64,000 nucleotides of DNA from Candidatus Avedoeria danica (GCA_016703025.1 JADJCV010000004.1:299164-363163), one strand, 5' to 3'. Counted from the stretch's first letter, positions 22,424 to 48,554 are shown. Numbers and translations: made by a program. The notes: generated by a model from the letters alone, not told the origin.

Positions 22424-24229
22424 CTACCCGGTCGTCGTCTCCTCGTCCTCGGGCACGAGGAACTGTTGGCAACGGCTCTGCTGGGAGTCCTCGCCCGTCG
22501 CGTCGAGGGCGGCGCAGCCGGCGGCGACGAGGTCGCGCAGCCTGGTCACGACGGCATCGTGCTCGCCGTCTGCGTTCCACTTGAGAATCGCGGCCGAGAG
22601 CGTGCCCATCCGGTCGCCATTGCCCAGCGCGAGCGCGTCCTGGTTGGCCATCAACTCGGTGAGGATCTTCGTGGCCTCGGTCTCGAACGTCGCCTCGTCC
22701 TCCGGGGCGAGCCGGAGGAGGGCGCGCAGGTAGCTGTGGCCCCAGCGGAAACGCGTCATCGACCCCTGGGACGTCTCCCATGCCTTGCGGTACCAGCCGA
22801 TCGCGCCGGCCGTGTCGTCCTTCTCCTCGGCGATGCTCGCGAGCTCGAGCATGTAGTAGTAGGGCTGGAGCGTCGAATCGAGCTTGGTGTTCAAGAGCTC
22901 CTCGGCGGCGGCGTCTTGGCCTGTCTCCTGGAGCATCCAGACCATCGTTCCCATGACGGTCTGCATCTCGCCTGCGTCGGTCACGGTCTCGCTGGACCAC
23001 TTCACGCGCTCGGCCACGCGCTGCACGAGGTCCGCCGGCAGCGGGATGGGCGTGGGCTCGGCGTCGGCGGCGTCGGCGGCGTCCGCGGCGGCCCCGTCGA
23101 CGGCCGCGGCCGTCGGGGTGAGCTCGCCGGTCGCAGTCACGACGTCGCTGGCGGCGGGCGCCGCGGACGCCTGCAGCCGAGCAAGAATGATCTGTGGGTA
23201 GAAGGCGGTCAGCCGGTCGTCGACCGTCATCGCCTCGTCGTCTTCGATCGCCCGGGCCGCGGCCGCCCAGGCGGCACCGAAGGCGTCGCGGTCGGGGCCG
23301 GGTTCGGGGAAGAGCATCGTGGCGGTTTCCTCGGACCAGTAATAGATCGTGTTCGTGTTCGCCGAGCGCTGCGCCGGGTCGGTGAAGACCTCGGCCAGCC
23401 CGGCCAGGAGGGCGGTCGCCTCGTCGGCGGTCGGTGCCGGGAGTTCGGGCGTTTCGCCTTCCTCGGCGGCGCCCTCGGCGTCCGACCGGGCGGCATGCAG
23501 TGCCTCGATCCAGAGGCACAGGAAGCGGTTCTTGGCGACGTTCAAGGTCGCCGGCGTTTCCTGCCACAGGCGCTTGAACAGCGCGAGCTTGCGGTCCGTG
23601 TCGAGTTCGAGGACGCTGTCCTGGTCCCAGGCGTAGAACGCCAGCAGGTCGAGGTCCTCCCCGGCGGCCGTCGCCGGGCCACCGGCCTCGACGGCGGCGA
23701 GGACGTCCGCGATCGGCATCATCTTCGCCTTGGCCGAGGTGAGGACGGAGGCGTACTTCTCGGCGTCGATGCCGCTGGTCAGGCGCATGATCTCATCGCC
23801 GTCCGGGTTGAAGACGATGACCGTCGGGTAGCCCTTGACGTCGAACTTCTCCCCCCAGATCTGGGCGCGCTCGGTGTCCCCGTCCAACTCGAGCGCCAGG
23901 AACTCTTTGCTGGCGGCGACGAACTCGGGCCGGTGGAAGACGCGCGTCTTCAGGTAGTAGCACGGCGGGCACCACACGGCGCCCCAGTAGAGGAAGACGG
24001 GCTTGTTCTCGGTCTTGGCCGTGTCGAACGCCGTCTGGACGTCGCCCTTGAACCAGGCCACCTCCTCGTGCGGCGTCTCGACCACCGGCTCCGTGGCCAC
24101 CACCGGCGGTGCCGAGGCTTCCTCGGCCGGCATGTCGGTTTTCGTCTGGCATGCGCCGAGCGCAAGCGCAATGGTGAGCGCAAGCAAGCCCTGCGCGCTG
24201 CGGGCAGCCGCCCGCCGGTGGGTCTTCAT
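22424..24229 (-). CDS. Thioredoxin-domain lipoprotein (WCPPC active site) with long alpha-helical C-terminal domain
   Basis: GAGGAG RBS. MKTHRRAAARSAQGLLALTIALALGAC (lipobox-like LGAC). FLYWGAVWCPPCYYL thioredoxin CxxC. The track ORF start at 24433 is a read-through extension. Confidence 0.65.
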   Translation of the reverse strand: MKTHRRAAARSAQGLLALTIALALGACQTKTDMPAEEASAPPVVATEPVVETPHEEVAWFKGDVQTAFDTAKTENKPVFLYWGAVWCPPCYYLKTRVFHRPEFVAASKEFLALELDGDTERAQIWGEKFDVKGYPTVIVFNPDGDEIMRLTSGIDAEKYASVLTSAKAKMMPIADVLAAVEAGGPATAAGEDLDLLAFYAWDQDSVLELDTDRKLALFKRLWQETPATLNVAKNRFLCLWIEALHAARSDAEGAAEEGETPELPAPTADEATALLAGLAEVFTDPAQRSANTNTIYYWSEETATMLFPEPGPDRDAFGAAWAAAARAIEDDEAMTVDDRLTAFYPQIILARLQASAAPAASDVVTATGELTPTAAAVDGAAADAADAADAEPTPIPLPADLVQRVAERVKWSSETVTDAGEMQTVMGTMVWMLQETGQDAAAEELLNTKLDSTLQPYYYMLELASIAEEKDDTAGAIGWYRKAWETSQGSMTRFRWGHSYLRALLRLAPEDEATFETEATKILTELMANQDALALGNGDRMGTLSAAILKWNADGEHDAVVTRLRDLVAAGCAALDATGEDSQQSRCQQFLVPEDEETTTG

Positions 24230-24470
24230 CGTCGTGATCTCCTCTTCGCCGCATGCGTCCATCCGACGGACGGCTCCGCTGGGCGCTTCGGCCGTCTGAG
24301 TGTAAAGAACGCGGGTGCGGACGTCAACGGGGTTGCCGGGCAGCAGAAGACGCGCGGCGGGCTCGGTGACGTCCGGTCCGGCCCTACAATGGGCGCCGTG
24401 CGCCGGCATCGCCACCGACGCCCACCGATCCACCCACGGCGCCTGCCGCTCCGTTCACACGAGGTTTCCC

Positions 24471-28391: not shown

Positions 28392-28398
28392 TGCCGTG

Positions 28399-28471
28399 TA
28401 CCCCCGGCACGGCTCGAACGTGCGACCTACTGGTTCGAAGCCAGTTGCTCTGTCCACTGAGCTACGGGGGC
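28399..28471 (-). tRNA. tRNA-Arg (anticodon TCG by manual fold)
   Basis: Reverse complement GCCCCCG-TA-GCTC-AGTGGACA-GAGC-A-ACTGG-CTTCGAA-CCAGT-AGGTC-GCACG-TTCGAGC-CGTGC-CGGGGGT-A gives a 73-nt cloverleaf with a T-loop TTCGAGC and anticodon loop CTTCGAA. Confidence 0.8.
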
Positions 28472-33286: not shown

Positions 33287-35432
33287 CTACCGCCGCCCCC
33301 AAAACGCCCCCGCCGGACAAGGCAACCGCACCGCGATCGAGCTGTAAATCCCCGCCAACGCCTCCGCATCCGGCGCCACGAACGCATCCGCCGGCCGGCT
33401 AGCGATCGCCCGCAGCGCGTCCACGTCCAGGTCGTACCCGACGCCCACGGTGAACACCGTCACGCCCGCCGCCTTGGCGCGCGCCGCCTCCGCCACCGCC
33501 ACGTCCGCCGGCACCGGGTTCGCGCGGCCGTCCGTGAGGACGATCATCGCCGCGGCGTTCTCGGCCCTGCGCCGCGCCGGGTCGGCGAGCGCTTCGGCGG
33601 CGACGGCGACGGCGCGGTCGAGGCGGGTGAGGGATGCCGTGGTGATGGAGGCGAGCGCGGCGTCGAGGGCGGCGCGGTCATCGGTCAGCGGCTGGAGGAG
33701 CCAGGCGTCGCTGTTGAACGTGACGATCGCGGCCTGATCGCCCTCGGCCAGCCGGAGCGTGCCGAGGAACGTGCGGGCGGCGTCGACGGCGGCGGCGAGC
33801 TTGGTGCGGCCGGCGGCGGTGGGCTCGGTCATGGACGACGAGGCGTCGATGGCGAGGGCGATGTCGACGTGGCGCTCGGTGGGGGTGCAGGATTCGGTGA
33901 GGGCGAGGGGGAGGTAGACGGGGGCGGGGAGGGGTGTGGGGGTCGCGGGGAGGGTCGGCGTGGCGGTTGGGAGGGGTGACGGGGTGGCGGTGGCGCGATG
34001 GGACGGCGTGGGCGTTGGGGTGAGCGTGAGGGTGGTGGGATGCGGTGGGAGGGGGCGTCGGGGAGGGCGGGGGGGTGAGGAGGCCGTTGGCGGTCCAGAT
34101 GTCGCCGGGGAGGTTGTTGCGTACCGTTGAGGCGATGAGCATGCGGCGGAGTTCAAGGCGACGACCGCCATCCAGTACTTCGATGACGGCGAAGTCGCCA
34201 TCGCCATTCTCTTCGGACGAGGCGGCGATCAAGTATTGACCACTGGCGCTCCAGGCAACGGACAGTGATGGCCCACCGGGCGCGCGCGTGAAGGCGCGAT
34301 CACCAGGATAGATCATCGTGTAAGGAGCTCGAATCGGAAGTCGGGCAATCTCACGGGCGATATACGGTCGCTCAGCATCGTAGGCGCGGTCCGAAGGTGA
34401 CATTTCGACAAGTTCGTACACGGCAACGATCGTGTTGGCATGAACAGCCAGGAGGCCACGGTTCAACCACGCATTGTTGAACGCTACGCCTCCCACATAC
34501 TTGAAGTCCGGTGCAAGTGGCACAGTCTGTGCGGTGCGGCTCACAATGTCGATCGCCGCGATGTTTCCGGCGAATTGGCGATTCGTTACGACTAGGTTGC
34601 CGCGCGCGTTCAATGTGGCATGGAGGGCAGGTAGGGATCTGCCATGGCCATAGTAGAAGTGTGGCGGCGAGACGGCGGTCGGGAACGGGATGGGTTCGGC
34701 AAGTTCCGACCAAGTCGCACCATCCATTGACTCAATCGTTCCTCCGTCCGTCATGATGATGACGTGATCATCGCGCCCAGTGGGCAGAATCTCGACGGCG
34801 AGGTGTTCCGTGCGCGGACTGGCGCTCACTGTATCGAGGTCTGGACGCGATCCCCCTGTACTGCTGAATCGGATGCGGTCGATGCCGTAGGGTGGCTGCG
34901 GAATCAAGACATAGCCCTCGGGGCTAACCGCGTATCCTGCTCTGGCGGCAAGAAACGAACCATCAGGCATCGATGAAATCGCACCATACGATGCAAAGTC
35001 AGGGCCGCGCACACGGCCCTCAACAAAGCGACCAGACGAACTTGTGTCCGCGTTTGCAACGATAGCAAACGGTGAACAGGACTTGCTAATGTCGACTTGT
35101 TCTTCGCCAAACCCAAGTCCGCAACCAGAACCAGTTCCCGCGACGATTGTCGAAAGATCGGCCACGGCTGCCATTCGTCCAAGAATATTGTACGTCTCTC
35201 CGCGAAAAATGAGTGCCCCGATGTCGATGTTGTGAATAGTAATGGCTGACATTCCATCATCGGGACGCATGTTTGGATAAACATGGTCGTCGATTAGCAC
35301 CACCGCGCTCAGAGGATCAATGTATGTTTGAGCTCCCGCAATAGTCTCCGCCGCAAATACAATAGATGCAACCCATGCTCCGACAAGAGCGAGGGCCGAT
35401 GAGAGGTCAAGTCTAAGGCGGCACTTTCTCAC
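33287..35432 (-). pseudogene. Cassette A large gene: signal peptide + propeller-like domain + PT linker + VWA, frameshifted in linker (two track ORFs 33678..35432 and 33287..34207)
   Basis: GTG start MRKCRLRLDLSSALALVGAWVASIVFAAETIAGAQ. Compared with copy C there is a 1-nt insertion just after …TPPPTAS (~34045), shifting the VWA part into another frame. Confidence 0.5.
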
Positions 35433-35548
35433 GACAATTCCCCGCGACGGCTAGGTAATGGTGGCAGTGAGCCTCACATTCGCCCACTGCCACCATTACC
35501 CGTCAACGATTAACCATGACTGGCCTACAAGGTGTGAGCGGGTGCCCG

Positions 35549-36304
35549 TTAGTTGTAGATGATGTCCACTTGGGGGCCGCTGGCGCCTGCACACGAGTAT
35601 GTGCATTCGAACGCACCACTATCCGTCGTGCCGAACGTTTGACTGACCGGGCTGACTGATGTTCCTTCGGAGCAGAGCAAAGCGTCGATCTGGTTGCCGT
35701 CATCAACGCTCGTCGTCTCGTACTCCACACGCGACAGATAGCCGTTTACCTGTGGCTGGCAAGAGATGCTGCCGAACACCCCGTTGATCTTCGCCAGATC
35801 CACAACCAACTCGTAGCCCCAGCTGTTGTCGATGCTCATCCCGCTTCCGCAGCCGTATGTGGCGCAGACAGTCACGCCGTAGATCGGGCCGGTAGACGAG
35901 TTGCAGCCGGTGCATGACGCCGACCAACTGTCGGTGGAGTCCGACCAGTCAACATCCACGGTTACCTGGGAAGATGTGGTCGTTTGGCACCTGCAAGGTA
36001 GAGTCTCAAGCAATCGAGAGTCCCAATAGCCGGTGATTGTCCAGGACTCGCCCGTATCCGGCTCCACGGCGACCACGTCGTCTCCGCCCACTTGGTCGTA
36101 GTGGATGACATCGATTGCGGACACCTGGCGGCTAAAGTTGACGCAGTCATTCTGTCCGCAGTACTGTGCGTGGGCGACGTGCGGTGCCAGCGCCACCATC
36201 ACGGCCGCGGCCACCGCCGCAAGGCCAACACTAACGCGAATGGGAATCAGCCGACGCGATGTGCGTCCGATCGGGGGCGGGGAGGAAATAACGGTAAACA
36301 ACAT
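35549..36304 (-). CDS. Cassette A small gene: secreted Cys-rich ~225-aa protein (12 Cys), family unknown
   Basis: AGGAGG RBS. Signal MLFTVISSPPPIGRTSRRLIPIRVSVGLAAVAAAVMVALAPHVAHA|Q. Conserved blocks SAIDVIHYDQ, DVDWSDSTDSWSASCTGCN, ATYGCGSGMSIDNSWGYELVV, FECTYSCAGASGPQVDIIYN. Markedly lower GC than neighbours. Confidence 0.7.
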   Translation of the reverse strand: MLFTVISSPPPIGRTSRRLIPIRVSVGLAAVAAAVMVALAPHVAHAQYCGQNDCVNFSRQVSAIDVIHYDQVGGDDVVAVEPDTGESWTITGYWDSRLLETLPCRCQTTTSSQVTVDVDWSDSTDSWSASCTGCNSSTGPIYGVTVCATYGCGSGMSIDNSWGYELVVDLAKINGVFGSISCQPQVNGYLSRVEYETTSVDDGNQIDALLCSEGTSVSPVSQTFGTTDSGAFECTYSCAGASGPQVDIIYN

Positions 36305-36418
36305 GATCCACTACCTCCTGATTGAGCGGCCTGTAGGGGGCAGACCGCCCGGCGGGTTGCCGGAGGCGTGTACTTTGCCGTCACGGCGGTGGGGAATCCC
36401 GCGGGGATGGACGGGGCC

Positions 36419-36448
36419 AGTCTACCCGGCGATCAAACGCATGTCAAT
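36419..36448 (-). promoter_or_regulatory. Conserved sigma70-like promoter TTGACA-N17-TAGACT ~110 nt upstream of cassette-A small gene (copies also near 39740, 43030, 46300)
   Basis: Minus-strand read ccaTTGACAtgcgtttgatcgccgggTAGACTggcc. The same architecture with 17-nt spacers occurs in the other three units (-10 TAGACT or TAGGCT). Confidence 0.45.
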
Positions 36449-36573
36449 GGCCTTCCAAGAACTCGCGACACCGACACGACAGCCACTCCTGCCTTACCGA
36501 TACCATCGTTGCAGACCGGGGACATTGGCTCGATCCGCCCTGTAAGTTGCTTCCTCCGTCGCACAGCGAGGCG

Positions 36574-38742
36574 CTACCGCCTTCCCCAAAACACCCCCAC
36601 CGGACAAGGCAGCCGCACCGCGATCGAGGCGTAAATCCCCGCCAGCGCCTCCGCATCCGGCGCCACGAACGCATCCGCCGGCCCGCTCGCGATGGCCCGC
36701 AGCGCGTCCACGTCCAGGTCGTACCCGACGCCCACGGTGAACACCGTCACGCCCGCCGCCTTGGCCCGCGCCGCCTCCGCCACGGCCACGTCCGCCGGCA
36801 CCGGGTTCGCACGGCCGTCCGTTAGGACGATCATCGCCGCGGCGTTCTCGGCCCTGCGCAGCGCCGGGTCGGCGAGCGCCTCGGCGGCGACGGCGATGGC
36901 GCGGTCGAGGCGGGTGAGGGAGGCCGTGGCTATGGAGGCGAGCGCGGCGTCGAGGGCGGCGCGGTCGTCGGTCAGCGGCTGGAGGAGCCAGGCATCGCTG
37001 TTGAACGTGACGATCGCGGCCTGATCGCCCTCGGCCAGCCGGAGCGTGCCGAGGAACGTGCGGGCGGCGTCGACGGCGGCGGCGAGCTTGGTGCGGCCGG
37101 CGGCGGTGGGCTCGGTCATGGACGACGAGGCGTCGATGGCGAGGGCGATGTCGACATGGCGTTGGGAGGGGGTGCAGGATTCGGTGAGGGCGAGGGGGAG
37201 GTAGATCGGGGCGGGGAGGTGCGTTGGGGTGGCGGTGGCGGTCGATGATGGAACGGTGGTCGGCGTGAGAGTTGCCGGCACGGGAGTCGGTGTTGGTGTA
37301 TCGGTCGCGGTTGGCGTCAGCGATGATGTCCGTGTTGGTGTGGGGGACGAGGTGGGCGTGGCCGAGGGGCCGATTCGGCCATTGGCGGTCCAAATGTCGC
37401 CGGGGAAACTGTTGCTCGTGGTCGATGCGGCGAGCATGCGTCGCTGCTCGAGGCGGTGGCCGTTGTCGAGCACCTCGATGACGGCGAAGTCGCCGCCACC
37501 GACTTCTTCGGACGAAGCGGCAATGATGTACTGGCCGCTTGTGCTCCACGCGATGGAGTACGACGGGCCCATTGGGGCCTCAGTCAAGGCCCGTGAACGC
37601 CACCACTCGGCGTCGAACGGCCGTCCGATGGACAGACGTGCCACTTCACGCGCAACGTAGGGACGCGCGGGCTCAAACAATGGATCGCCAGCCGGTACTG
37701 CGGACAGTTCATACACTGCTATGAAGCTGTCAGCGTGTACTGCGAGCAGATTGCGATTCACCCAGCCATTGTTGAACGCGACGCCGCCCGTAAACGGAAT
37801 GTCGGGCGCTAGCGTTGCCGTCTGTGCGGTGCGACTCTCCAAATCGATGATGGCGATGTTACCGGCATTGAGGCGATTGGTCACGACGAGTCGTTCGTTG
37901 CCATTCATCGTGGCATGAAGTGCTGGAAGCGGTCGTCCGCGGCCATAGTAATGATTGTCAGGCGCGACAGCAGTCGGAAAAGGGATCGGGGGATCAATTT
38001 CGATCCAATTCGACGCATCCCTTGATTCTATCATGCCGCCATCGGTCATGATAACAACGTGGTCACCTTGTGCCTTGGGTAGAATCTCAATCGCAAGGTG
38101 GTCCATCTTTGGGCTAGAGCTCAACAACACCTTCTGAGGGCGATTCCCTATCGGCCGTCGAAATCGGACCCGGTCGATACCGTACGGCGACTCAGGCACC
38201 AGTGCGATGAATCCGGCGTCCACTTGACGGAAAGCGGCCCTGGCGAGCACAAACGATCCGTCGGGCAATGTGGCATTACCACCAAACCCGGCGAGGTCCC
38301 TGTCGAACAAGCGGGCGTCGGAGTATGGCGGATGGGACCCGGGACTGGCATCGGCAACGACGGCGAATGGAGAGCATGTGATGTCCATTACAGGCAGTTC
38401 GCGCGGGCGCCAGCCACAACCTTCTCCAGACCCAGCCACGATCATCGAAAGATCCTGAGTTGCAGACACCCGCCCAATTCCAACATACGATCTTCCACGA
38501 AACGTGGACACACCCGTTGGAATGTCATGGATCGTAATGGCTCCTTCGCCCTCACCATCACGCGCTTCGGGATGCATGGTGACGTCGATGAGCACCACTG
38601 TATCAACAGGATTCACATCAACAGGGCTATCTGGCGACTGAGCCCTTGCGTGATCAACAAGATGATGGAGAACTTGACCCATACACAAGATTGTAAACAT
38701 CCACGAAACAAAGACTGATGTATTCTGTCGACTCTTATGCAC
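36574..38742 (-). CDS. Cassette B large gene: secreted propeller-like / PT-linker / VWA protein
   Basis: GGGGAGAG RBS then GTG. Signal MHKSRQNTSVFVSWMFTILCMGQVLHHLVDHARA|Q. Divergent N-domain with a conserved VWA C-terminus. The track ORF start at 38817 looks like an upstream extension. Confidence 0.7.
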   Translation of the reverse strand: MHKSRQNTSVFVSWMFTILCMGQVLHHLVDHARAQSPDSPVDVNPVDTVVLIDVTMHPEARDGEGEGAITIHDIPTGVSTFRGRSYVGIGRVSATQDLSMIVAGSGEGCGWRPRELPVMDITCSPFAVVADASPGSHPPYSDARLFDRDLAGFGGNATLPDGSFVLARAAFRQVDAGFIALVPESPYGIDRVRFRRPIGNRPQKVLLSSSPKMDHLAIEILPKAQGDHVVIMTDGGMIESRDASNWIEIDPPIPFPTAVAPDNHYYGRGRPLPALHATMNGNERLVVTNRLNAGNIAIIDLESRTAQTATLAPDIPFTGGVAFNNGWVNRNLLAVHADSFIAVYELSAVPAGDPLFEPARPYVAREVARLSIGRPFDAEWWRSRALTEAPMGPSYSIAWSTSGQYIIAASSEEVGGGDFAVIEVLDNGHRLEQRRMLAASTTSNSFPGDIWTANGRIGPSATPTSSPTPTRTSSLTPTATDTPTPTPVPATLTPTTVPSSTATATPTHLPAPIYLPLALTESCTPSQRHVDIALAIDASSSMTEPTAAGRTKLAAAVDAARTFLGTLRLAEGDQAAIVTFNSDAWLLQPLTDDRAALDAALASIATASLTRLDRAIAVAAEALADPALRRAENAAAMIVLTDGRANPVPADVAVAEAARAKAAGVTVFTVGVGYDLDVDALRAIASGPADAFVAPDAEALAGIYASIAVRLPCPVGVFWGRR

Positions 38743-38863
38743 GCTACTTACTCTCCCCAAGTAGATGGCGGCCGCGGAGGCTGGACGCCAAGCAAGCCTG
38801 CCCCCGCGGCCGCACACTCATCTACTCACATCGGCACGTCCAGACGCCGGTACGGTGCCCAAT

Positions 38864-39613
38864 TCAGTCATACACGATGTCGACTTGTGGCCCGCTCGCC
38901 GCTCCGCACGAGAATGTGCACTCGAACGGGCCGGAGTCGGTAGTGCCGAACGCTTGACTGACCGGACTGACGGCAGTGCTCTCGGAACAGTACAGAGTGT
39001 TGATCTGGTTACCGTCGTCCACGCTGGTGGTTACGTACACGACGCGGTTGAGGAACGACGGGTTGGAGCCCCCGCCACAAGTGGACCCATTGTTTTCATC
39101 GACGCTCACGACTAGTTCGTAGCCCCAACCGTTGTCAATGCTCATGCCGCTGCCGCACCCGTACGTACTACAGATGGCGACTCCGCGCACTGGCCCAGCG
39201 AACGCATTGCAGCCAGTGCATGTGGCCGACCAGCCAGTGCTATCTGACCAGTCCACCGCTACATACACGACAGCGTTGCTGACAGCATCGCAGTCACACC
39301 AAATCGGATCACTGCCGAGTTGGTTCCAATACGCCGTTATCGTCCAGTGTTCGCCCGTGTTAGGCTCAACGGGTACAACCTCAGTATCGTCGATCTGGTC
39401 GTAGTGGATGACGTCGATGGCAGACACTTCGATTACAGCGGTTGAACAGTCATTGCGGCCACAGCCACCCTGAGCGTACGCGGCCTGCGGTGCCAGCGCC
39501 GCCATCACAGCTGCGGCCACCGCCGCAAGGCCAACGCTAACGGGGATGGGAATCAGCCGACGCGACGTGCGTCCGATAGGGGGCGGGGGAGGGGATATAA
39601 CGGTGAACAACAT
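38864..39613 (-). CDS. Cassette B small gene: secreted Cys-rich protein paralog
   Basis: MLFTVISPPPPPIGRTSRRLIPIPVSVGLAAVAAAVMAALAPQAAYA|Q. Same Cys pattern as the 35549..36304 gene. The track ORF extends to 39694 through in-frame leader sequence. Confidence 0.7.
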   Translation of the reverse strand: MLFTVISPPPPPIGRTSRRLIPIPVSVGLAAVAAAVMAALAPQAAYAQGGCGRNDCSTAVIEVSAIDVIHYDQIDDTEVVPVEPNTGEHWTITAYWNQLGSDPIWCDCDAVSNAVVYVAVDWSDSTGWSATCTGCNAFAGPVRGVAICSTYGCGSGMSIDNGWGYELVVSVDENNGSTCGGGSNPSFLNRVVYVTTSVDDGNQINTLYCSESTAVSPVSQAFGTTDSGPFECTFSCGAASGPQVDIVYD

Positions 39614-39883
39614 GATCAAGTACCTCCTGATACGGCGGCCTGATTGGGGGCAGACCGCCCGGCGGGTTTCCGGAGGCGTGTACTTTGCCGTCACGGCGGT
39701 GGGGGATCCCGCGGGGATGGACGCGGCCAGTCTAACCGGCGATCAAGCGCTTGTCAATGGCCTTTCAAGAATTCGCGACACGGAAACGACATCACTTCCT
39801 GTCTTTCGGAGGCTTCCATGGGAGACTGCGGAAATTGGCTCGATCCGCCCCGAAAGTCGCTTCCTCCATCGCAAGTCACTCAC

Positions 39884-42043
39884 CTACCGCCTTCCCCAAA
39901 ACGCCCCCGCCGGACACGGCAACCGCACCGCGATCGAACTGTAAATCCCCGCCAGCGCCTCCGCATCCGGCGCCGTGAACGCATCCGCCGGCCCGCTCGC
40001 GATCGCCCGCAGCGCGTCCACGTCCAGGTCGTACCCGACGCCCACGGTGAACACCGTCACGCCCGCCGCCTTGGCCCGCGCCGCCTCCGCCACCGCCACG
40101 TCCGCCGGCACCGGGTTCGCGCGGCCGTCCGTGAGGACGATCATCGCCGCGGCGTTGCCCGCACTGCGCCGTGCCGGGTCGGCGAGCGCCTCGGCAGCGA
40201 CGGCGACGGCGCGGTCGAGGCGCGTGAGGGATGCCGTGGTGATGGAGCCCAGCGCGGCGTCGAGGGCGGCGCGGTCGTCGGTCAGCGGCTGGAGGAGCCA
40301 GGCGTCGCTGTTGAACGTGACGATCGCGGCCTGATCACCCTCGGCCAGCCGGAGCGTGCCGAGGAACGTGCGGGCGGCGTCGACGGCGGCGGCGAGCTTG
40401 GTGCGGCCGGCGGCGGTGGGTTCGGTCATGGACGACGAGGCGTCGATGGCGAGGGCGATGTCGACGTGGCGTTGGGAGGGGGTGCAGGACTCGGTGAGGG
40501 CGAGGGGGAGGTAGATGGGGGCGGGGAGTGGTGTTGGCGTGGCGGTGAGGGAAGGCGTGGCGGTGGGGAAGGGCGATGGGGTGGCGGTGGCGAGGGGGGA
40601 AGGCGTGGGCGTTGGGGTGAGCGTGGGGGTGGGGGATGCGGTGGGCGTGGGCGTTGGGGAGGGCGGGGGGGTGAGGAGGCCGTTGGCGGTCCAGATGTCG
40701 CCGGGGAAGTTGTCGCGGGTGGTGGATGCCGTGAGCATCCGGCGGTACTCGAGCGTGCGCCCGTCGTCCATTACCTCGATGACCGCGAAATCGCCATCGC
40801 CGGTGTCCTCCGATGATGCGGCGATGAGATAGCGACCATCCGCGCTCCAGGCGATCGAGTACGCCGGGCCAAAGGGCGCGACGGTGAGCGCACGAGTTCG
40901 AAGCCAACTGGAGTTGATGGGCCGCCGAATGCTGAGTCGGGATAGCTCCGCGGCTTCGTACGGCCGCGCGGGATCGTACGAAGCATCGCTCGTCGGAACG
41001 GGAGACAGTCGGTATACAGCCACGTACTCGTCCGCGTGGACTGCCAGCAGATCATCGTTCAGCCACGCATTGTTGAATGCGACGCCGCCTGCGAATCGGG
41101 CGTCTGGCGCCAATGTTACGGTTTGAGCAGTGCGTGCCACCAAGTCGACAAGAGCGATGTCGCCGGCAATCAGTCTGTTGGTCGCGACGAGGCGCTCCTC
41201 GGAATTCATAGTTGCGTGGAGAGCGTGGATTGGGCGTCCCTTTCCGTAAGACATGTGATCGGGAGCCGTGGCCGTTGGAAATGAGATTGCTGCACCCATC
41301 GGCGACCAAGTATCGATGTTGAATGACTCGATGGTGCCGCCATCTGTAAGCACAATAATCGTTTTGTCATCTCGAGTAGGTAGAATTTCTACCGGAAGAT
41401 GATTTAGGTTGGAACTTGAGTCGACTCGTTCAATTTGCGGATAGTTGGAAATCGGACCCTTGAATCGTATGTGATCGAGGCCAAATGGTGGCTTCGGAAC
41501 GACGACATTAAACGGAATGTCGTGTCGAATCTGCTGTCCGGAACGAGTCATTATGAAGGTGCCATCAGTCAGCGCGGCAACGCCGCCGAACGGTGCATAG
41601 TCACGGTCGCGTGAACGGCCATCCACAAGGCGCGAAGATGAATCCAGCTTCCACTCTGCCAGGAGCGCGAATGGTTTGCACCTTTGGTCGAAGTCCCCTG
41701 CCCAAGTGGCCTCATCGACTCGAAACCCACAGCCCTCGCCCGGCCCGGCGATCAGCATTGACAAGTCGCTGGACGCCGCCATCCTTCCTAGTCCAAGATA
41801 CGATCGTCCGCGTACAAGCGATTCGCCGTTATCCACATTGTGAATCGTCAGCGCCCCTTGTCCATCATATGGCCGCGACAACGATCCCGTTAGCGTAACA
41901 TCAATGAGTACCACGGCTCTCACAAGATCAGGTAACGTTTGCGCGTGTACACGAATAACTACCGCAATAGCCAATCCAATCATCGACAGCCCGGTGACAA
42001 GGATTCCTGTGATCGCGTGGAGCCGAGGCGCCTTTCGATTCAT
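39884..42043 (-). CDS. Cassette C large gene: secreted propeller-like / PT-linker / VWA protein
   Basis: MNRKAPRLHAITGILVTGLSMIGLAIAVVIRVHA|Q. Intact single ORF of 719 aa. Confidence 0.7.
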   Translation of the reverse strand: MNRKAPRLHAITGILVTGLSMIGLAIAVVIRVHAQTLPDLVRAVVLIDVTLTGSLSRPYDGQGALTIHNVDNGESLVRGRSYLGLGRMAASSDLSMLIAGPGEGCGFRVDEATWAGDFDQRCKPFALLAEWKLDSSSRLVDGRSRDRDYAPFGGVAALTDGTFIMTRSGQQIRHDIPFNVVVPKPPFGLDHIRFKGPISNYPQIERVDSSSNLNHLPVEILPTRDDKTIIVLTDGGTIESFNIDTWSPMGAAISFPTATAPDHMSYGKGRPIHALHATMNSEERLVATNRLIAGDIALVDLVARTAQTVTLAPDARFAGGVAFNNAWLNDDLLAVHADEYVAVYRLSPVPTSDASYDPARPYEAAELSRLSIRRPINSSWLRTRALTVAPFGPAYSIAWSADGRYLIAASSEDTGDGDFAVIEVMDDGRTLEYRRMLTASTTRDNFPGDIWTANGLLTPPPSPTPTPTASPTPTLTPTPTPSPLATATPSPFPTATPSLTATPTPLPAPIYLPLALTESCTPSQRHVDIALAIDASSSMTEPTAAGRTKLAAAVDAARTFLGTLRLAEGDQAAIVTFNSDAWLLQPLTDDRAALDAALGSITTASLTRLDRAVAVAAEALADPARRSAGNAAAMIVLTDGRANPVPADVAVAEAARAKAAGVTVFTVGVGYDLDVDALRAIASGPADAFTAPDAEALAGIYSSIAVRLPCPAGAFWGRR

Positions 42044-42154
42044 GGACTTTCGACTCCTGAATGGCGGGAGCAGCGAAGACGCACTTTCGCCTCCGCTGCT
42101 CTCGGCTCACCGTAGTGACTCCGAATTCAATTGTCGACCTAGGTCAGCACAGCG

Positions 42155-42899
42155 TCAGTTGTAGACGATGTCCACCGTAGGGCCACTCGCGACACCGCAC
42201 GAATTGGTGCACTCGAACGGACCGCTGTCGGTAGTGCCGAAGGCCTGCGAGATTGGACTGACCGCAGTGCTTTCGGAGCACAATAGGCCATTGATCTGGT
42301 TGCCGTTGTCGACGCTGGTTGTCACGTACTCAACCTCCGAAAGGAAGCCGTCCACGGCCCCATTGCACGTCGTCCCGTTTTTCTCGTTCAAGCTAACAAC
42401 GAGCTCATAACCCCAGCTGTTGTTGATGCTCATCCCGCTGCCGCAACCATACGTTGTGCAGATCGTAACCCCAAATACGGGGCCGACGAACGCGTTGCAT
42501 CCTGTGCAGGTTGCAGACCAGCTGTTGGTGGCATCTGACCAATCCACCGCTACATCGACCTGAGCCGTGGCCGTATGATCGCAGTCACACTGCTCTGGCG
42601 CACCGTGGGTCGAGCCCCAATACGCAGTGATCTCCCAGTCTTCGCCAGTATTGGGCTCGACTGCGATCACTGTGGTGGGGTTGATCTGGTCGTAGTGAAT
42701 GACATCTATGGCGGAAACTTCAATCGTGCCGGGCGCACAATCGTCTTCGCCGCAGTATTGTGCGTACGCCGCCTGTGGTGCCAGCGCCGCCATCACGGAC
42801 GCGGCCATCACCGCAAGGCCAACGCTAACGCGGATGGGAATCAGCCGACGCGACGTGCGTCCGATCGGGGGCGGGGGGGGATATAACGGTAAACAACAT
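42155..42899 (-). pseudogene. Cassette C small gene: Cys-rich protein paralog with +1 frameshift in a C8 (plus-strand G8) tract just after the start codon
   Basis: ATG TTG TTT ACC GTT ATA TCC CCC CCC GCC… shows one extra C relative to the in-frame paralogs (TCC CCT CCC CCG), giving a stop after 24 codons. The track ORF restarts at internal MMAASVMAALAPQAAYAQ. Confidence 0.5.
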
Positions 42900-43169
42900 G
42901 ATCCAGTACCTCCTGATACGGCGGCCTGTATGGGGGCAGGCCACTCGGCGGGTTGCCGGAGGCGTGTACTTTGCCGTCACGGCGGTGGGGGATCCCGCGG
43001 GGATGGACAGGGCCAGTCTACCCGGCGATCAAACGCTTGTCAATGGCCTTTCGAGAACTTGCGACACCGAAACGACATCACGTTCTGCCTTATCGAGACG
43101 TCCGTTGCAGACCGGGAAAATTGCCTCGATCCGCCCTGCAAGTCGCTTCCTCCGTCGCAAGCCGAAGCG

Positions 43170-45317
43170 CTACCGTCTCCCCCAAAACGCCCCCGCCGGA
43201 CAAGGCAACCGCACCGCGATCGAGCTGTAAATCCCCGCCAACGCCTCCGCATCCGGCGCCACGAACGCGTCCGCCGGCCGGCTCGCGATCGCCCGCAGCG
43301 CGTCCACGTCCAGGTCGTACCCAACGCCCACGGTGAACACCGTCACGCCCGCCGCCTTGGCGCGCGCGGCTTCGGCGACGGCGACGTCCGCCGGGACGGG
43401 GTTCGCGCGGCCGTCCGTGAGGACGATCATCGCCGCGGCGTTCTCGGCCCTGCGCCGCGCCGGGTCGGCGAGCGCTTCGGCGGCGACGGCGACGGCGCGG
43501 TCGAGGCGGGTGAGGGATGCCGTGGTGATGGAGGCGAGCGCGGCGTCGAGGGCGGCGCGGTCGTCGGTCAGCGGCTGGAGGAGCCAGGCGTCGCTGTTGA
43601 ACGTGACGATCGCGGCCTGATCGCCCTGGGCCAGCCGGAGCGTGCCGAGGAACGTGCGGGCGGCGTCGATGGCGGCGGCGAGCTTGGTGCGGCCGGCGGC
43701 GGTGGGCTCGGTCATGGACGACGAGGCGTCGATCGCGAGGGCGATGTCGACGTGGCGTTGGGAGGGGGTGCAGGATTCGGTGAGAGCGAGGGGGAGGTAG
43801 ATGGGGGCGGGGAGGGGCGTCGGGGTGGCGGTGGAGGAGGGCGTGGCAGTCGGGAAGGGCGATGGGGTGGCGGTGGCGAGGGGAGACGGCGTGGGTGTGG
43901 CGGTGAGCGTGGGGGTGGGAGAGGCAGTGGCGGTGGGCGTCGGGGAGGGCGGGGGGGTGAGGAGGCCGTTGGCGGTCCAGATGTCGCCGGGGAGGTTTTC
44001 GCGGACAGTTGAGGCGACTAGCATGCGGCGGAGTTCAAGGTGCCGCCCGTCATCTAGAACCTCGATGACGGCGAAGTCGCCATCGCCGTTCTCTTCCGAG
44101 GCGGCGGCGATCAAGTACTGGCCACTTGCACTCCAGGCAATTGAAAGGGAAGGACCACTGGGGGCATTCGTGAAAGCACGATTGCCGGGATAATCAGAAT
44201 TGTAGGGTGCTCGAATCGGCAGTCTTGCGATCTCGCGCGCCACGTAAGGGCGCGAAGCATCGTATGCCGCGTCCAAGTTGGACATCGCTACAAGTTCGTA
44301 CACGGCCACCAGCGTGTTGGCGTGTACAGCTAGAAGGTTGCGGTTTAGCCACGCGTTGTTGAACGAAACGCCGCCCACATACTTGAGGTCCGGCGCCAGT
44401 GCAACGGACTGTGAAGTGCGGCTGACGACATCGATCGCTGCGATGTTGCCAGCGAATTGACGGTTCGTTACAACAAGGCCTCTGTGCGTATTCATCGTGG
44501 CATGAAGCGCAGGCAGAGATCGTCCTTGGCCAAAGTAATAGTGCGGCGGTGAGACTGCTGTCGGGAACGGGATTGGTTCGGCAAGCACCGACCAGGTTGA
44601 GACGTCCATCGCCTCGATCGTCCCACCGTCCGTCATGATGATGACCTCATCACCACGACCAGTTGGCAGAATCTCGACTGCGAGGTGGTCGGTTCGCGGG
44701 CTGGCGCTGACCGTGTCGATCCCGGCACGCGTCCCAACGTTGCGCCGGAAATGAACACGATCGATGCCAAAGGGCGGTTGCGGCAACATGACCAGGCCAA
44801 TGTCATGAAGGGCGTATCCCGCCCTGGCGAAGAGGAACGAGCCATCCCGCATGGCAGCGACTGCACCATAGGTTGCAAAGTCGCGGCCGCGAACGCGCCC
44901 TTCCTGGAACAGTTCCGGCCCGGTACTATTCAACTCTGCGACAATGGCGAACGGGGAACATGAATTGAAGCCGTTGATCTGCTCTTCGCCAAAATGAAAC
45001 CCACAATTGTAGCCGGTGCCGGCAGTGACAAATGACATGTCTGGCGATGCGGACATCCGCCCCAAAGCGCTGTATGTTTTGCCTCGAAAAATACGCGCGC
45101 CGCTTTCAATATTGTGTATGGTAAGGGCCGACATGCCATCATTGGGCCGCACGTTGGGTGAGATATGGTCGTCGATGAGAATTACCGAATGGAGCACGTC
45201 GATCGAGGTCTGTGCGCGCGCGGCATTGTGTGTCGTGAAAGCTACAGCGGTTACGCAAGTTCCTCCCAATGCGATGGCCAGGACTGTGGGAACTCGACTG
45301 CGCAAGCCACTCATCAC
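43170..45317 (-). CDS. Cassette D large gene: secreted propeller-like / PT-linker / VWA protein
   Basis: MMSGLRSRVPTVLAIALGGTCVTAVAFTTHNAARA|Q. 715 aa. N-domain most similar to copy A. Confidence 0.7.
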   Translation of the reverse strand: MMSGLRSRVPTVLAIALGGTCVTAVAFTTHNAARAQTSIDVLHSVILIDDHISPNVRPNDGMSALTIHNIESGARIFRGKTYSALGRMSASPDMSFVTAGTGYNCGFHFGEEQINGFNSCSPFAIVAELNSTGPELFQEGRVRGRDFATYGAVAAMRDGSFLFARAGYALHDIGLVMLPQPPFGIDRVHFRRNVGTRAGIDTVSASPRTDHLAVEILPTGRGDEVIIMTDGGTIEAMDVSTWSVLAEPIPFPTAVSPPHYYFGQGRSLPALHATMNTHRGLVVTNRQFAGNIAAIDVVSRTSQSVALAPDLKYVGGVSFNNAWLNRNLLAVHANTLVAVYELVAMSNLDAAYDASRPYVAREIARLPIRAPYNSDYPGNRAFTNAPSGPSLSIAWSASGQYLIAAASEENGDGDFAVIEVLDDGRHLELRRMLVASTVRENLPGDIWTANGLLTPPPSPTPTATASPTPTLTATPTPSPLATATPSPFPTATPSSTATPTPLPAPIYLPLALTESCTPSQRHVDIALAIDASSSMTEPTAAGRTKLAAAIDAARTFLGTLRLAQGDQAAIVTFNSDAWLLQPLTDDRAALDAALASITTASLTRLDRAVAVAAEALADPARRRAENAAAMIVLTDGRANPVPADVAVAEAARAKAAGVTVFTVGVGYDLDVDALRAIASRPADAFVAPDAEALAGIYSSIAVRLPCPAGAFWGRR

Positions 45318-45430
45318 ATACTCCGGCGTTCATGGAGGGCGGCGGCGTTAGGCCGACAACTCGGCCACACGCCGTCGCCCCGATCAGTGACGTTCTCTCC
45401 AAGGCTCGCTGGAACTGACCGGTGGCCCGC

Positions 45431-46183
45431 TCAGTTGTAGATGATGTCTACCTGCGGTCCGCTGGCGCCCGCGCACGAGTAGGTGCACTCGAATGCACCA
45501 TTGTCTGTCACGCCAAACGACTGGCTGATCGGACTTACAGCCGTGCTCTCAGAACACAGGAGTCCGTTAATCTGGTTGCCATCATCGACGCTCGTAGTCA
45601 CGTACTCTACGCGCGTCAGATATCCGTTCACGCCCGGATTGCAGGAGATGCTGCTGAACATTCCATTGATCTTCAGCACGTCAACAACCAGTTCGTACCC
45701 CCAACTGTTGTCAACGCTCATCCCGCTGCCGCAGCCGTACGTGGCACAGACGGTAACGCCATAGATCGGCCCATTCGTCGGGTTGCAGCCCGTGCAGGAT
45801 GCCGACCAGCTATCGGTGGAGTCGGACCAGTCAACATCGACGGACACAGATGCCGAGTTCGTCTGTTGGCACTGGCAGGCGAGTGGATTCGCCAGCAGCG
45901 AGTCCCAGTAAGCCGTGATCGACCACGTCTCTCCGGTGTCCGGCTCCACCGCTACGACGTCATCGTCGTCGATCTGGTCGTAGTGGATGACATCGATCGC
46001 GGACACTTGGCGGTTGAAGTTGACGCAGTCATTGCGTCCACAGGTCTGCGCATACGCCGCCTGCGGTGCCAGCGCCGCCATCACGGCCGCGGCCACCGCC
46101 GCAAGGCCAACACGAACGCGGATGGGAATCAGCCGACGCGACGTGCGTCCGATCGGGTTGGGGGATACAAAGGTAATCGACAT
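45431..46183 (-). CDS. Cassette D small gene: secreted Cys-rich protein paralog
   Basis: AGGAGG RBS. MSITFVSPNPIGRTSRRLIPIRVRVGLAAVAAAVMAALAPQAAYA|Q. The track ORF extends to 46264. Confidence 0.7.
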   Translation of the reverse strand: MSITFVSPNPIGRTSRRLIPIRVRVGLAAVAAAVMAALAPQAAYAQTCGRNDCVNFNRQVSAIDVIHYDQIDDDDVVAVEPDTGETWSITAYWDSLLANPLACQCQQTNSASVSVDVDWSDSTDSWSASCTGCNPTNGPIYGVTVCATYGCGSGMSVDNSWGYELVVDVLKINGMFSSISCNPGVNGYLTRVEYVTTSVDDGNQINGLLCSESTAVSPISQSFGVTDNGAFECTYSCAGASGPQVDIIYN

Positions 46184-46565
46184 AATCCAGTACCTCCTGA
46201 TAGGACAGCCTGATTGGGGGCAGGCCGCCCGGCGGGTTGCCGGAGGCGTGTACTTTGCCGTCACGGCGGTGGGGGATCCCGCGGGGATGGATGGACGGAG
46301 GGAAGCCTACAGGCACTCGGCGCGGGTGTCAATAGGTGCATGCGTTGTTGAACTGTGGAATCCAATGAATAATTTACAATTCCTTCTCGACATCCGCACA
46401 GTTGACGACGCTTTGAACTGCACAGAGTGCACGACACTCAGGCGCGAAAGGACATCTGACTGACTAGGTTCTCTTCAACTCTATCGAAGTTACAGTTCGC
46501 ATGCCTGTAACACTCGCGTGCAATCTGTCGCACATTGATCGCGCCGCAGTTCCACCGCGTGTCTC

Positions 46566-48554
46566 TTACCGCCGCCCCCAAAACGCCCCCGCCGGACAAG
46601 GCAACCGCACCGCGATCGAGCTGTAAATCCCCGCCAACGCCTCCGCATCCGGCGCCACGAACGCATCCGCCGGCCGGCTAGCGATCGCCCGCAGCGCGTC
46701 CACGTCCAGGTCGTACCCGACGCCCACGGTGAACACCGTCACGCCCGCCGCCTTGGCGCGCGCCGCCTCCGCCACCGCCACGTCCGCCGGCACCGGGTTC
46801 GCGCGGCCGTCCGTGAGGACGATCATCGCCGCGGCGTTCTCGGCCCTGCGCCGCGCCGGGTCGGCGAGCGCTTCGGCGGCGACGGCGACGGCGCGGTCGA
46901 GGCGGGTGAGGGATGCCGTGGTGATGGAGGCGAGCGCGGCGTCGAGGGCGGCGCGGTCATCGGTCAGCGGCTGGAGGAGCCAGGCGTCGCTGTTGAACGT
47001 GACGATCGCGGCCTGATCGCCCTCGGCCAGCCGGAGCGTGCCGAGGAACGTGCGGGCGGCGTCGACGGCGGCGGCGAGCTTCGTGCGGCCGGCGGCGGTG
47101 GGCTCGGTCATGGACGACGAGGCGTCGATGGCGAGGGCGATGTCGACGTGGCGTTGGGAGGGGGTGCAGGATTCGGAGAGGGCGAGGGGGAGGTAGATGG
47201 GGGCGGGGAGGGGCGTGGGGGTGGCGGTGGGGGAAGGAGTGGCGGTCGGGAAGGGCGTTGGGGTGGCGGTGGCGAGGGGGGACGGCGTGGGCGGGGCGGT
47301 GAGCGTGGGGGTGGGGGACGCGGTGGGGGTGGGCGTTGGGGAGGGCGGGGGGGTGAGGAGGCCGTTGGCGGTCCAGATGTCGTTGGGGAGGTTTCCGTTC
47401 TCGGTACATGCAGTCAGATAGCGTTCAATCTCAAGGTCCCGCCCGTCGTCTCGCACGTCGATGACGACAAACTCGGCGTCATCATGATCGGTAGCGGCGA
47501 TGATGTGTGTTCCTCGTGAGGACCATGCGACCGAGAAAAGGGGTCCGGCGGCCGCGGATTCGACCACGCTCAATCCTTGCTTTGCAGCGTTGCTCGGCGG
47601 ATCAATCGCGATCCGTCCAACTTCGCTAGCCGTCGAGTCGGCCATTAGACGATAGACGACCACTAGATCCATAGCATGTACGGCTAGTAGTCCGGAATTG
47701 ATCGGGCCGGCATTGATAGATACGCCATCCACAAAACGTAGATCAGATGACAGCGGGACAACTACTGATTTGCGCGTTGCCACGTCAATCATGGCGATGC
47801 TCGGGGATAGCATCCGATTGACGATGATACGTCGCCCGTCGGCCATGATCGTCGCATGCATTGCTCCGATTGCCGCCTTCCCTCCATACGGACGACTATA
47901 TCCTGACACCGCAGTCGGATACGGGATGGGAGGCTCCGCCCACTTCATCGTACTCGTGTCAATGACTCCAACACTGCCATTGGATTGAACAATTGCCGTA
48001 AATCGTGAATCCGCAGTTCGAAGGAACTCAATCGGCAAAGATGCGATGGCCATGCGCCCGAGTTGTAGTGCAAGAGCATCTCGATTCGCGATAGCCGCGG
48101 GTAACGTGATGCGAGCAACAAAGTAGGGCGACCTTGGGACAAGAATGCTTGCACCATCGTTGAGATCATAGCCAGCCTCGGCGACCAAGAGCGTTGAATC
48201 GCGCAGGAATGCAATGCCTCCCATCGTGCCAAACTTGTTGCCGCGAATCCGCCCCGTTGAGAAGCCTCCTCGACTGCCATCAACGGCCGTGAGGGCGATG
48301 AGTGCTGGCGTGCAATCCGGTGGATTGGGTTCGCGAAAGCTCACTGCGCAGCTATTGCTCAACGTGCTAATCATCACCGACGCATCATCTCGAACTGCCA
48401 GTCTACCCGGAGACACGAGGGTGTCGCTACTCTGAATTCGTGAACCGTCCACTATGTTGAATACCGAGATTGCATCACATCCGGCTGAGTCCATTGCCAG
48501 ATCTTCCGTGACGACTACCAGGTCCTCAAGTTGGACTTCGGTCTGAGCCCCCAC
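46566..48554 (-). CDS. Terminal (5'-most) large paralog E: divergent propeller-like domain + PT linker + identical VWA; no recognisable signal peptide and no small-gene partner
   Basis: GTG start directly after an in-frame TGA. The N-terminal 450 aa is much more divergent than in A-D. VWA and linker match copy A at DNA level. Confidence 0.55.
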   Translation of the reverse strand: MGAQTEVQLEDLVVVTEDLAMDSAGCDAISVFNIVDGSRIQSSDTLVSPGRLAVRDDASVMISTLSNSCAVSFREPNPPDCTPALIALTAVDGSRGGFSTGRIRGNKFGTMGGIAFLRDSTLLVAEAGYDLNDGASILVPRSPYFVARITLPAAIANRDALALQLGRMAIASLPIEFLRTADSRFTAIVQSNGSVGVIDTSTMKWAEPPIPYPTAVSGYSRPYGGKAAIGAMHATIMADGRRIIVNRMLSPSIAMIDVATRKSVVVPLSSDLRFVDGVSINAGPINSGLLAVHAMDLVVVYRLMADSTASEVGRIAIDPPSNAAKQGLSVVESAAAGPLFSVAWSSRGTHIIAATDHDDAEFVVIDVRDDGRDLEIERYLTACTENGNLPNDIWTANGLLTPPPSPTPTPTASPTPTLTAPPTPSPLATATPTPFPTATPSPTATPTPLPAPIYLPLALSESCTPSQRHVDIALAIDASSSMTEPTAAGRTKLAAAVDAARTFLGTLRLAEGDQAAIVTFNSDAWLLQPLTDDRAALDAALASITTASLTRLDRAVAVAAEALADPARRRAENAAAMIVLTDGRANPVPADVAVAEAARAKAAGVTVFTVGVGYDLDVDALRAIASRPADAFVAPDAEALAGIYSSIAVRLPCPAGAFWGRR

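Follow-up and report, generated by a model that had tools for sequence, protein, structure and literature searches.

A stretch of 64,000 nucleotides from Candidatus Avedoeria danica (GCA_016703025.1 JADJCV010000004.1:299164-363163), referred to here as the window, carries four small genes for cysteine-rich proteins whose codon usage departs from that of the GC-rich genes around them. It raises the question of what these proteins are, with what they act and why their composition is so different. Should the answer developed below be correct, the locus would hold secreted proteins of a new family, whose fold may be new as well, together with an undescribed two-component extracellular module in Anaerolineae, filamentous Chloroflexi that are the backbone of activated-sludge flocs and of many sediment communities and whose surface biology is almost unknown.

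An array of small and large genes

The small genes alternate with large ones encoding a beta-propeller and a VWA domain, and the array formed by both occupies 33287-48554, head-to-tail on the minus strand, with 4.5 cassettes in the window. The order of transcription is L5, s4, L4, s3, L3, s2, L2, s1, L1, where s denotes a small and L a large gene. The unit is a small gene together with the large gene downstream of it. The features are:

33287-35432, minus strand: L1, large partner with signal peptide, beta-propeller, PT linker and VWA; frameshift within the PT linker, ORFs 33678-35432 and 33287-34207
35549-36304, minus strand: s1, small Cys-rich secreted protein copy 1; intact ATG ORF of 251 aa, 12 invariant Cys; GC3 0.73
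36305-36418, minus strand: leader, ~105-115 nt, nearly invariant in the four units, with AGGAGG at its end
36360-36410, 39670-39720, 42956-43006 and 46240-46290, minus strand: 51-nt leader core repeats, one per unit
36419-36447, minus strand: promoter-like TTGACA-17-TAGACT upstream of s1
39729-39757, 43015-43043 and 46304-46332, minus strand: equivalent promoter-like sites of pattern TTGACA-17-TAGRCT
36574-38817, minus strand: L2, large partner; ORF of 747 aa; VWA PF00092, E 1.4e-18
38864-39613, minus strand: s2, small Cys-rich secreted protein copy 2; intact, 249 aa; GC3 0.69
39884-42043, minus strand: L3, large partner; 719 aa; PF00092 match
42155-42899, minus strand: s3, small Cys-rich protein copy 3; open frame 42155-42811, frameshifted by a poly-C tract near 42872; GC3 0.71
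43170-45317, minus strand: L4, large partner; 715 aa; copy modelled with AlphaFold
45431-46183, minus strand: s4, small Cys-rich secreted protein copy 4; intact, 250 aa; GC3 0.75; copy modelled with AlphaFold
46566-48554, minus strand: L5, divergent propeller and VWA, without signal peptide and without a small gene of its own

An earlier, sequence-only reading of this DNA had listed four small genes, which holds for s1, s2 and s4 but not for the 745 nt of 42155-42899, which are not one ORF. Homology of s3 extends to 42899, where an ATG is out of frame owing to the length of the poly-C tract; GCA_963852785.1, an independent assembly 99.5% identical over 20.8 kb with the entire array included, has one C more or fewer in this tract, and an in-frame s3 allele is present in a metagenome (P0004). 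The true start of L2 probably lies further downstream than the start of its ORF. The propeller of L5 is only 34-37% identical to the others in the window and an in-frame stop lies directly upstream of the gene, which is probably a decaying copy. Damaged copies are thus s3, L1 and L5, and the frameshifts in s3 and L1 occur where the sequence is rich in C, as is typical of errors in long reads. An L5-type propeller with its own upstream small gene was seen in another metagenome (L022).

Each small/large pair appears, from the pattern of upstream motifs, to have its own promoter-like site followed by the shared leader. The promoter pattern gave four matches against a chance expectation of none, three of them recovered also by a consensus scan, and AGGAGG lies 9 nt 5' of the ATG of s1, as it does in each unit. 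Conservation of the leader is confined to this lineage and absent from distant loci; for this reason, and with a folding z of only -2.0 against shuffles, no riboswitch or structured leader is claimed. An Rfam scan of the whole window returned tRNA only.

Related loci were drawn from ENA, Logan, NCBI and JGI; for the metagenome scan a 110-sequence profile proved too diverse and a 30-sequence alignment was used. In all of the ~29 loci where the sequence continues for at least ~400 nt past the small gene, a propeller-VWA gene lies 3' of it on the same strand. The partner gene starts 110-150 nt downstream, and the partners in these loci can be aligned with L4 from end to end, with 37-44% identity. 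One possible exception is the JGI contig P0017, available as gene calls and not as DNA: the gene after the small one lies on the opposite strand, and no VWA gene is called directly 3' of it. Synteny therefore gives good support to the suggestion that the small and the VWA protein are cognate partners. In many related loci the 3' end of a VWA also lies directly upstream of the small gene, which indicates that tandem arrays are common.

The small protein and its partner

The four small genes are paralogues for secreted proteins of ~205 residues. Compared along their whole length, s2-s4 share 64-79% identity with s1; for the mature part alone the range over all pairs is 62-81%. The conserved Cys spacing noted earlier is borne out, with 12 Cys invariant in the four copies, spaced as CG.NDC, C.C, CTGCN, C.TYGCGSGMS, C, C and FECT.SC, and so is the lack of a recognisable domain: Pfam, NCBIfam and PADLOC gave no match, the best in Pfam being DUF3795 with an E of 0.06, below the cutoff and judged to be a chance match of Cys patterns. 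With no match in PADLOC a known defence system was dropped from consideration. Comparison with PDB sequences gave a best E of 0.38 with the 30-sequence profile and 0.53 with the 110-sequence profile. An AlphaFold model of s4 built from 30 sequences has a mean pLDDT of 84.6, with most blocks of the mature part above 90. The fold is all-beta, and several of its 13 strands have a length of 12-19 residues. Foldseek found no fold match for it in the PDB (best E 0.057, TM 0.25) or in BFVD (best E 3e-3, TM 0.21). For the lectin or toxin-like ligand first thought of as a possibility, the libraries searched thus contain no relative in sequence or in fold, and no relative of known function was found. 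The small protein can be assigned to no family described so far, nor to any solved fold among those searched; the family is new. Its partner is assembled from known domains.

Searching 5.8 billion proteins by indexed words found 26 close relatives; the only ones with a name come from Ardenticatenales MAGs and are entered as 'hypothetical protein'. With a profile run exhaustively against 1.84 billion representatives the family grew to ~209 clusters, nearly all of whose representatives are standalone proteins of 220-250 aa, and the longer members have no Pfam domain. The named genomes that carry relatives are MAGs of Ardenticatenales, Anaerolineae and Anaerolineales. No relative was found on the viral contigs searched, and a phage origin was dropped on that ground.

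Secretion, also part of the earlier proposal, is upheld by the N-terminus of every family member, a hydrophobic stretch that closes with A-x-A. The window copies have TSRRLIPI, but a twin arginine precedes the mature start in just 39 of 110 family members, so that a Tat signal was rejected as a family feature and the hydrophobic stretch is read as a Sec-type signal peptide. Eight core Cys are retained in at least 92% of 126 homologues and the other four are jointly absent in about a third of them. C130 and C133 are lost together in 43 homologues with 3 discordant, and C103 and C181 in 39 with 6 discordant; this co-loss in the pairs C130-C133 and C103-C181 agrees with disulfides better than with a metal cluster. 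Binding of a metal by four Cys (CxC plus CxxC) was considered and dropped, since C105 persists without C103, C130 and C133, and C103 co-varies with C181. The hydrophobic segment and the Cys co-loss together support a secreted, disulfide-rich protein, which up to six disulfides would stabilise. Among its acidic residues D227 and a VEPDTGE motif are nearly invariant.

The partner carries at its C-terminus a VWA domain that matches PF00092 in L2-L5 with 66.7-70 bits against a gathering cutoff of 23.8 (E ~1e-18). Its MIDAS motif (DxSxS...T...D) is complete in alignment A3, with D530, S532 and T603 invariant and S534 and D635 nearly so, and metal-dependent ligand binding is, by analogy with other VWA domains, a candidate function. 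A conserved Cys flanks the domain on both sides, positioned as in the staple of the vWF A-domain. In the model of L4 a helix at 9-33, the signal peptide ending ARA/QT, is followed by a WD40-like propeller (~40-450, pLDDT mostly 80-93), a disordered PT linker (461-515) and the VWA (520-705). Foldseek matched the propeller to seven-bladed ones, 3fgb_A (E 1.9e-11, TMt 0.63), the designed 7-blade protein 7bid (TMt 0.76) and G-beta (E ~1e-10), and it is probably seven-bladed itself. No Pfam repeat family (WD40, FG-GAP) was found in the propeller part, for which the sole match was a sub-threshold one of L5 to Beta-prop_EDC4L. The N-terminal ~450 residues of the partner have about a dozen relatives, nearly all fused to a VWA.

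The VWA of L4 was matched by Foldseek to CMG2 (anthrax toxin receptor 2), vWF A3 and mussel PTMP1 with E ~1e-10 to 1e-11, and the predicted structure superposes on them with an rmsd of 2.4-3.5 A over ~190 residues. It shares with these proteins PF00092, the DxSxS...T...D motif and the Cys staple. Unlike in them, the VWA is here a constant C-terminal module that follows a variable propeller and the PT linker, and nothing in their systems corresponds to the small Cys-rich protein.

Composition and exchange of cassettes

The GC3 of the four small genes was compared with that of 15 other genes in the window (mean 0.921, sd 0.018, minimum 0.88), from which they lie 10-13 sd lower (z -10 to -13). 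The enrichment in A/T-ending codons attributed to them is real: TTT makes up 24% versus 5% in the other genes, ATT 22% versus 3%, AAT 28% versus 5% and GAT 34% versus 14%, a 2.5-7-fold excess, and G/C-ending codons remain the majority. The companion statement, that the neighbours exceed 90% GC3, is true of genes outside the array and of the VWA-encoding 3' ~630 nt of the adjacent large genes (0.93-0.94), but not of their propeller-encoding 5' ~1.25 kb, where GC3 is 0.57-0.65, below the small genes themselves. In a composition profile each low-GC block is a small gene and the propeller that follows it, and between these blocks lie high-GC VWA blocks, in which GC skew is strong owing to the Pro/Thr linker. 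Low GC3 marks the whole variable cassette and not the small genes specifically, and a caution for annotation follows: low GC here flags the cassette rather than setting the small genes apart as special. The pattern is not peculiar to this genome. On contigs of 58-72% GC the small gene was lower than the VWA in 23 of 23 loci and the propeller lower than the VWA in about 19 of 19, and near-equal GC3 in cassette and host was seen in L008 and L030 only.

The same partition is seen in divergence. DNA identity between units is 94-98% in the VWA part and 88-90% in the leader plus signal peptide, 56-72% in the mature small gene and 27-69% in the propeller. Between copies dS is 0.01-0.18 in the VWA and saturated (at least 1.3) in the small and propeller parts, and dN/dS is 0.08-0.24 for most copy pairs, rising to 0.43 in pairs with L5; the less saturated comparisons between alleles gave 0.13-0.19. 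Saturated dS together with low dN/dS implies that small-gene and propeller sequences are ancient, functional and under purifying selection, and the low dS of the VWA that its segments are homogenised by gene conversion. Positive selection was sought gene-wide and none was detected, which weakens a reading of strong diversifying selection. The closest small pair, s1-s4 (81%), coincides with the closest propeller pair, L1-L4 (71% identical), and distances in small gene and propeller are correlated (r = 0.74, Mantel p = 2e-4), those in propeller and VWA more highly so (r = 0.85). Co-inheritance alone could yield the small-propeller correlation.

Comparison with other genomes showed that the content of the locus changes. 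The Ardenticatenales MAG SJ541 (locus L009) has a single unit, 98.2% identical to unit 2, with a 150-bp upstream VWA remnant and the same flanking genes as the window at ~91% identity. Between the two dS is 0.009 in the propeller, 0.023 in the small gene (nucleotide identity to s2 0.988, amino acid identity 97.9%), 0.11 in the VWA and 0.16-0.22 in the flanks. The single-unit array is known from a MAG, to which strain-chimeric assembly may contribute. On a metagenome contig (L014) unit 2, at 98.5%, is followed by a cassette other than the one in the window, and substitutions against GCA_963852785.1 cluster in L1. Taken together these three comparisons indicate that the locus gains, loses, converts and exchanges cassettes.

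Two causes remain for the GC3 gap, continual horizontal circulation of cassettes and an effect linked to recombination. According to the latter, which we regard as possible though rather unlikely as the full account, the VWA recombines and so attains a high GC3, while alleles that have diverged too far for recombination drift towards AT under mutation bias, the mechanism being GC-biased gene conversion or a reduced efficacy of GC-favouring selection, and nothing need be of foreign origin. A positive relation between recombination and GC has been found across bacteria (PMC4450053) and speaks for such an effect. The order of GC3 also mirrors the rate of evolution, identity between loci being 25-46% for the propeller, 35-81% for the small protein and 40-82% for the VWA. 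Within the large genes, moreover, GC3 climbs near codon 400, at the point where homogenisation begins and paralogue identity jumps to 94-98%, and where dS between alleles, above 1 at the 5' end of the gene and about 0 at its 3' end, collapses. However, the leader and signal-peptide segment is homogenised too and has a GC3 of only ~0.6-0.8, so that the link between homogenisation and GC is not a simple one, and the small protein and the VWA differ in GC3 in spite of similar divergence between genomes. The gap of 0.3 GC3 within a single gene is also larger than any effect of biased gene conversion in bacteria known to us. If the exchange of cassettes is as supposed here, low GC3 would be the mark of those parts that are exchanged and rarely homogenised. 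The contrast within one gene, of a part evolving in concert with host-like GC3 and an exchanged, ancient part 0.3 lower, would then offer a natural test case for whether recombination and biased gene conversion or foreign origin set GC3 in high-GC bacteria.

A recent horizontal acquisition, in which the array would be a foreign, unameliorated island from a donor of lower GC whose VWA ends had been overwritten by resident sequence, is unlikely. The array does show traits of a genomic island in its atypical composition (GC3 0.61-0.72 versus 0.92) and in the number and order of its units, which vary between strains (1 versus 4.5, in different order); comparison of two genomes makes the cassette younger than its flanks, and an IS3 transposase adjoins the module in one related locus (L003). 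Against this, the paralogues of the array have saturated dS and are therefore old, each locus of the family that was examined shows this mosaic too, and no locus has a cassette that matches host GC3, save for the two cases of near-equality. The order propeller < small < VWA, being family-wide, is not simply due to one recent import into this genome. Of the mobility signs of a classical island, a scan of the window genes found no integrase or transposase, no direct repeats bound the array, and the tRNA-Arg at 28398-28471 is 5 kb from it, behind genes that L009 also carries. Of the earlier proposal of a horizontally acquired module, what stands is that cassette 2 is shared with another Ardenticatenales MAG at a dS of 0.01-0.02 (versus 0.16-0.22 in the flanks) and that content varies; the low GC3, as a family-wide property, is not simply that of a recent import.

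A possible role outside the cell

The reading we prefer, and to which we would give about an even chance, is that of an extracellular binding module with two components, encoded at a hypervariable locus of Anaerolineae (Chloroflexota). The product of the first gene would be secreted by a Sec-type signal and have ~205 residues in an all-beta fold with up to six disulfides; that of the second would be a secreted protein with a fast-evolving propeller, a Pro/Thr linker and a MIDAS-VWA closed by a Cys-Cys staple. Both would act jointly outside the cell in an adhesion or recognition complex, in which the constant VWA docks via its metal site onto a common ligand or matrix and specificity comes from the variable propeller and the small protein, the latter being the propeller's cognate ligand or co-receptor; D227 or the VEPDTGE motif of the small protein is a candidate carboxylate for the metal site. 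The ~0.9-kb VWA segments and the leader/signal-peptide segments, kept alike by gene conversion, would serve as recombination anchors, and the small and propeller segments between them would be ancient diverged alleles that are gained, lost and exchanged between lineages. A physical interaction of the pair and its binding role are suggested by domain analogy (VWA/MIDAS, propeller) and by the obligate synteny.

Several known systems offer parallels. The integrin head, with the seven-bladed propeller of its alpha subunit, a beta-I/VWA domain and Cys-rich accessory domains, has a similar set of components, and since beta-I/VWA binds an acidic residue of its ligand, the small protein could by analogy offer the carboxylate. 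Unlike in integrins, the propeller here has no FG-GAP signal, both domains are on one chain with a flexible linker and there is no transmembrane segment or cytoplasmic tail; the comparison is by domain analogy and homology is not implied. PilY1, the type IV pilus tip protein, combines a VWA with a beta-propeller in a surface and adhesion context. It shares both domain types with the partner but in opposite order, its VWA being N-terminal whereas here the propeller precedes the VWA; PilY1 structures were not within the top 50 fold matches of L4, and the window genes that were scanned include none for pilins or pilus assembly. Co-varying neighbours, tandem arrays, recombination handles and strain-variable cassettes are also features of Dictyostelium tgrB1/tgrC1 and of CDI/Rhs orphan arrays, to which there is no sequence relationship and from which this locus differs in that all components are secreted and selection is mainly purifying. 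Nothing relevant was found in the literature on VWA or adhesion systems in Ardenticatenales or Anaerolineae, and as far as the literature was searched the gene pair and the cassette array are undescribed.

A more specific version can be put forward as speculation, and we hold it decidedly doubtful. In this version the small protein would have a fold new among solved structures and be the ligand of the hypervariable propeller, the two serving filamentous, multicellular Anaerolineae as a ligand-receptor system for allorecognition or adhesion specificity; the alleles would be ancient balanced polymorphisms shuffled via the VWA anchors and the GC3 step the footprint of this recombination.

It is improbable that the locus encodes a toxin or bacteriocin system, with an antimicrobial small protein, a propeller-VWA protein as its carrier, receptor mimic or protector, and an arms race behind the diversity. 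Tandem, co-varying gene pairs with conserved recombination handles do resemble polymorphic toxin loci, the small protein is secreted and Cys-rich, and the VWA resembles that of CMG2, a toxin receptor. Searches of Pfam, NCBIfam and PADLOC, however, brought up no domain of a toxin, a bacteriocin or an immunity protein, and a dN/dS of ~0.1 gives no sign of an arms race. The would-be immunity protein is secreted and of 700 aa, and we know of no immunity protein like it. The arrangement also differs from polymorphic toxin/immunity loci in that the small gene is upstream and secreted, and from orphan toxin modules in that the variable domain is N-terminal and each cassette has its own promoter-like site.

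That the array is an artefact, either a chimeric assembly or a set of non-coding or pseudogene ORFs, is scarcely credible and largely refuted, for although the source is probably a MAG, s3 and L1 are frameshifted and L5 is truncated, the whole array recurs in the independent assembly, the intact single ORFs of L2, L3 and L4 cross the GC boundary, dN/dS is ~0.1 in a conserved family of ~209 clusters, and the same junctions are present in L009, L014 and L021.

Three further large secreted proteins of the window (10728-14168, 48952-52794 and 56519-60607) end in the same PxYLPxA-Cys-VWA-Cys module as the partner, so that the VWA looks like a common C-terminal docking module of this organism.

Leaders and homopolymer tracts in the array

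The leader, which runs from a promoter-like site to the start codon, was found to be nearly invariant in its ~105-115 nt across the units of the array and to be more conserved than the coding sequence. Its predicted folding gave a marginal gain over shuffled sequences (z -2.0), and it was not found outside this lineage. The leaders and the two sites of frame disruption in the array are as follows.

36305-36418, leader
39614-39728, leader
42900-43014, leader
46184-46303, leader
42860-42899, minus strand, poly-C (proline-codon) tract directly after the ATG of copy 3 of the small Cys-rich gene
~34000-34210, frameshift in L1, a large propeller-VWA gene, within its C-rich Pro/Thr (PT) linker

The length of the poly-C tract differs among all four small genes, and in copy 3 the tract breaks the reading frame after the ATG. 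An independent assembly, GCA_963852785.1, which is 99.5% identical, has one extra C in the copy 3 tract. The frame break may stem from an error of long-read sequencing in the homopolymer, or copy 3 may be a pseudogene or undergo slipped-strand phase variation. With the frameshift in its PT linker, L1 falls into two ORFs, 33678-35432 and 33287-34207. In GCA_963852785.1 the stretch 34746-33745 of the same gene shows several indels and clustered substitutions, a pattern that resembles either a tract of gene conversion or noise from the assembly.

A probable first cassette and related genomes

L5, the divergent large gene, starts exactly where the signal peptide of its paralogues is cleaved. The region 48555-48951 has an in-frame TGA immediately upstream of this start and contains no small gene ahead of L5, which looks like a degraded first cassette. 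At the related locus of MAG SJ541 (L009) L5 has been deleted, with its last ~150 bp remaining.

One Anaerolineales MAG carries two copies of the module, on contigs L012 and L013, between which the small proteins are 96% and the VWA 95% identical, the propellers only 81%. The propeller is thus the part that diverges fastest in lineages beyond that of the window as well.

Other secreted proteins ending in VWA

Three further large secreted proteins (1146, 1280 and 1362 aa, respectively) have a C-terminal VWA module.

10728-14168, minus strand
48952-52794, minus strand
56519-60607, minus strand

FG-GAP and CARDB domains occur in one of the three and a double VWA in two, while the C-terminal order of PT linker, PxYLPxA, Cys, VWA and Cys is common to all. 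The genome seems to use a C-terminal VWA 'dock' repeatedly. For the 1280-aa protein, comparison of its C-terminal part (48952-50500) with L009 gave a dN of 0.066 and a dS of 0.017, an odd ratio that may come from real positive selection or else from a stretch that is frameshifted or was subject to conversion.

Other features of the window

3450-4157, ORF with LVIVD-like beta-propeller repeats
4271-4579, 102-aa ORF
22424-24433, minus strand, gene whose 669-aa product carries a thioredoxin-like domain (Thioredoxin_7, E 2e-14)
28398-28471, minus strand, tRNA-Arg (TCG)

The gene for the 669-aa protein lies ~9 kb away from the array; its product might be an extracytoplasmic thiol-disulfide oxidoreductase of relevance for Cys-rich secreted proteins, or a mere neighbour. 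The tRNA-Arg, the sole RNA gene found in the window, is 5 kb from the array and not on its border. A second small low-GC patch was observed at 3450-4600 (GC 63% in 4001-5000), and the 102-aa ORF within it looks like a ribbon-helix-helix antitoxin.
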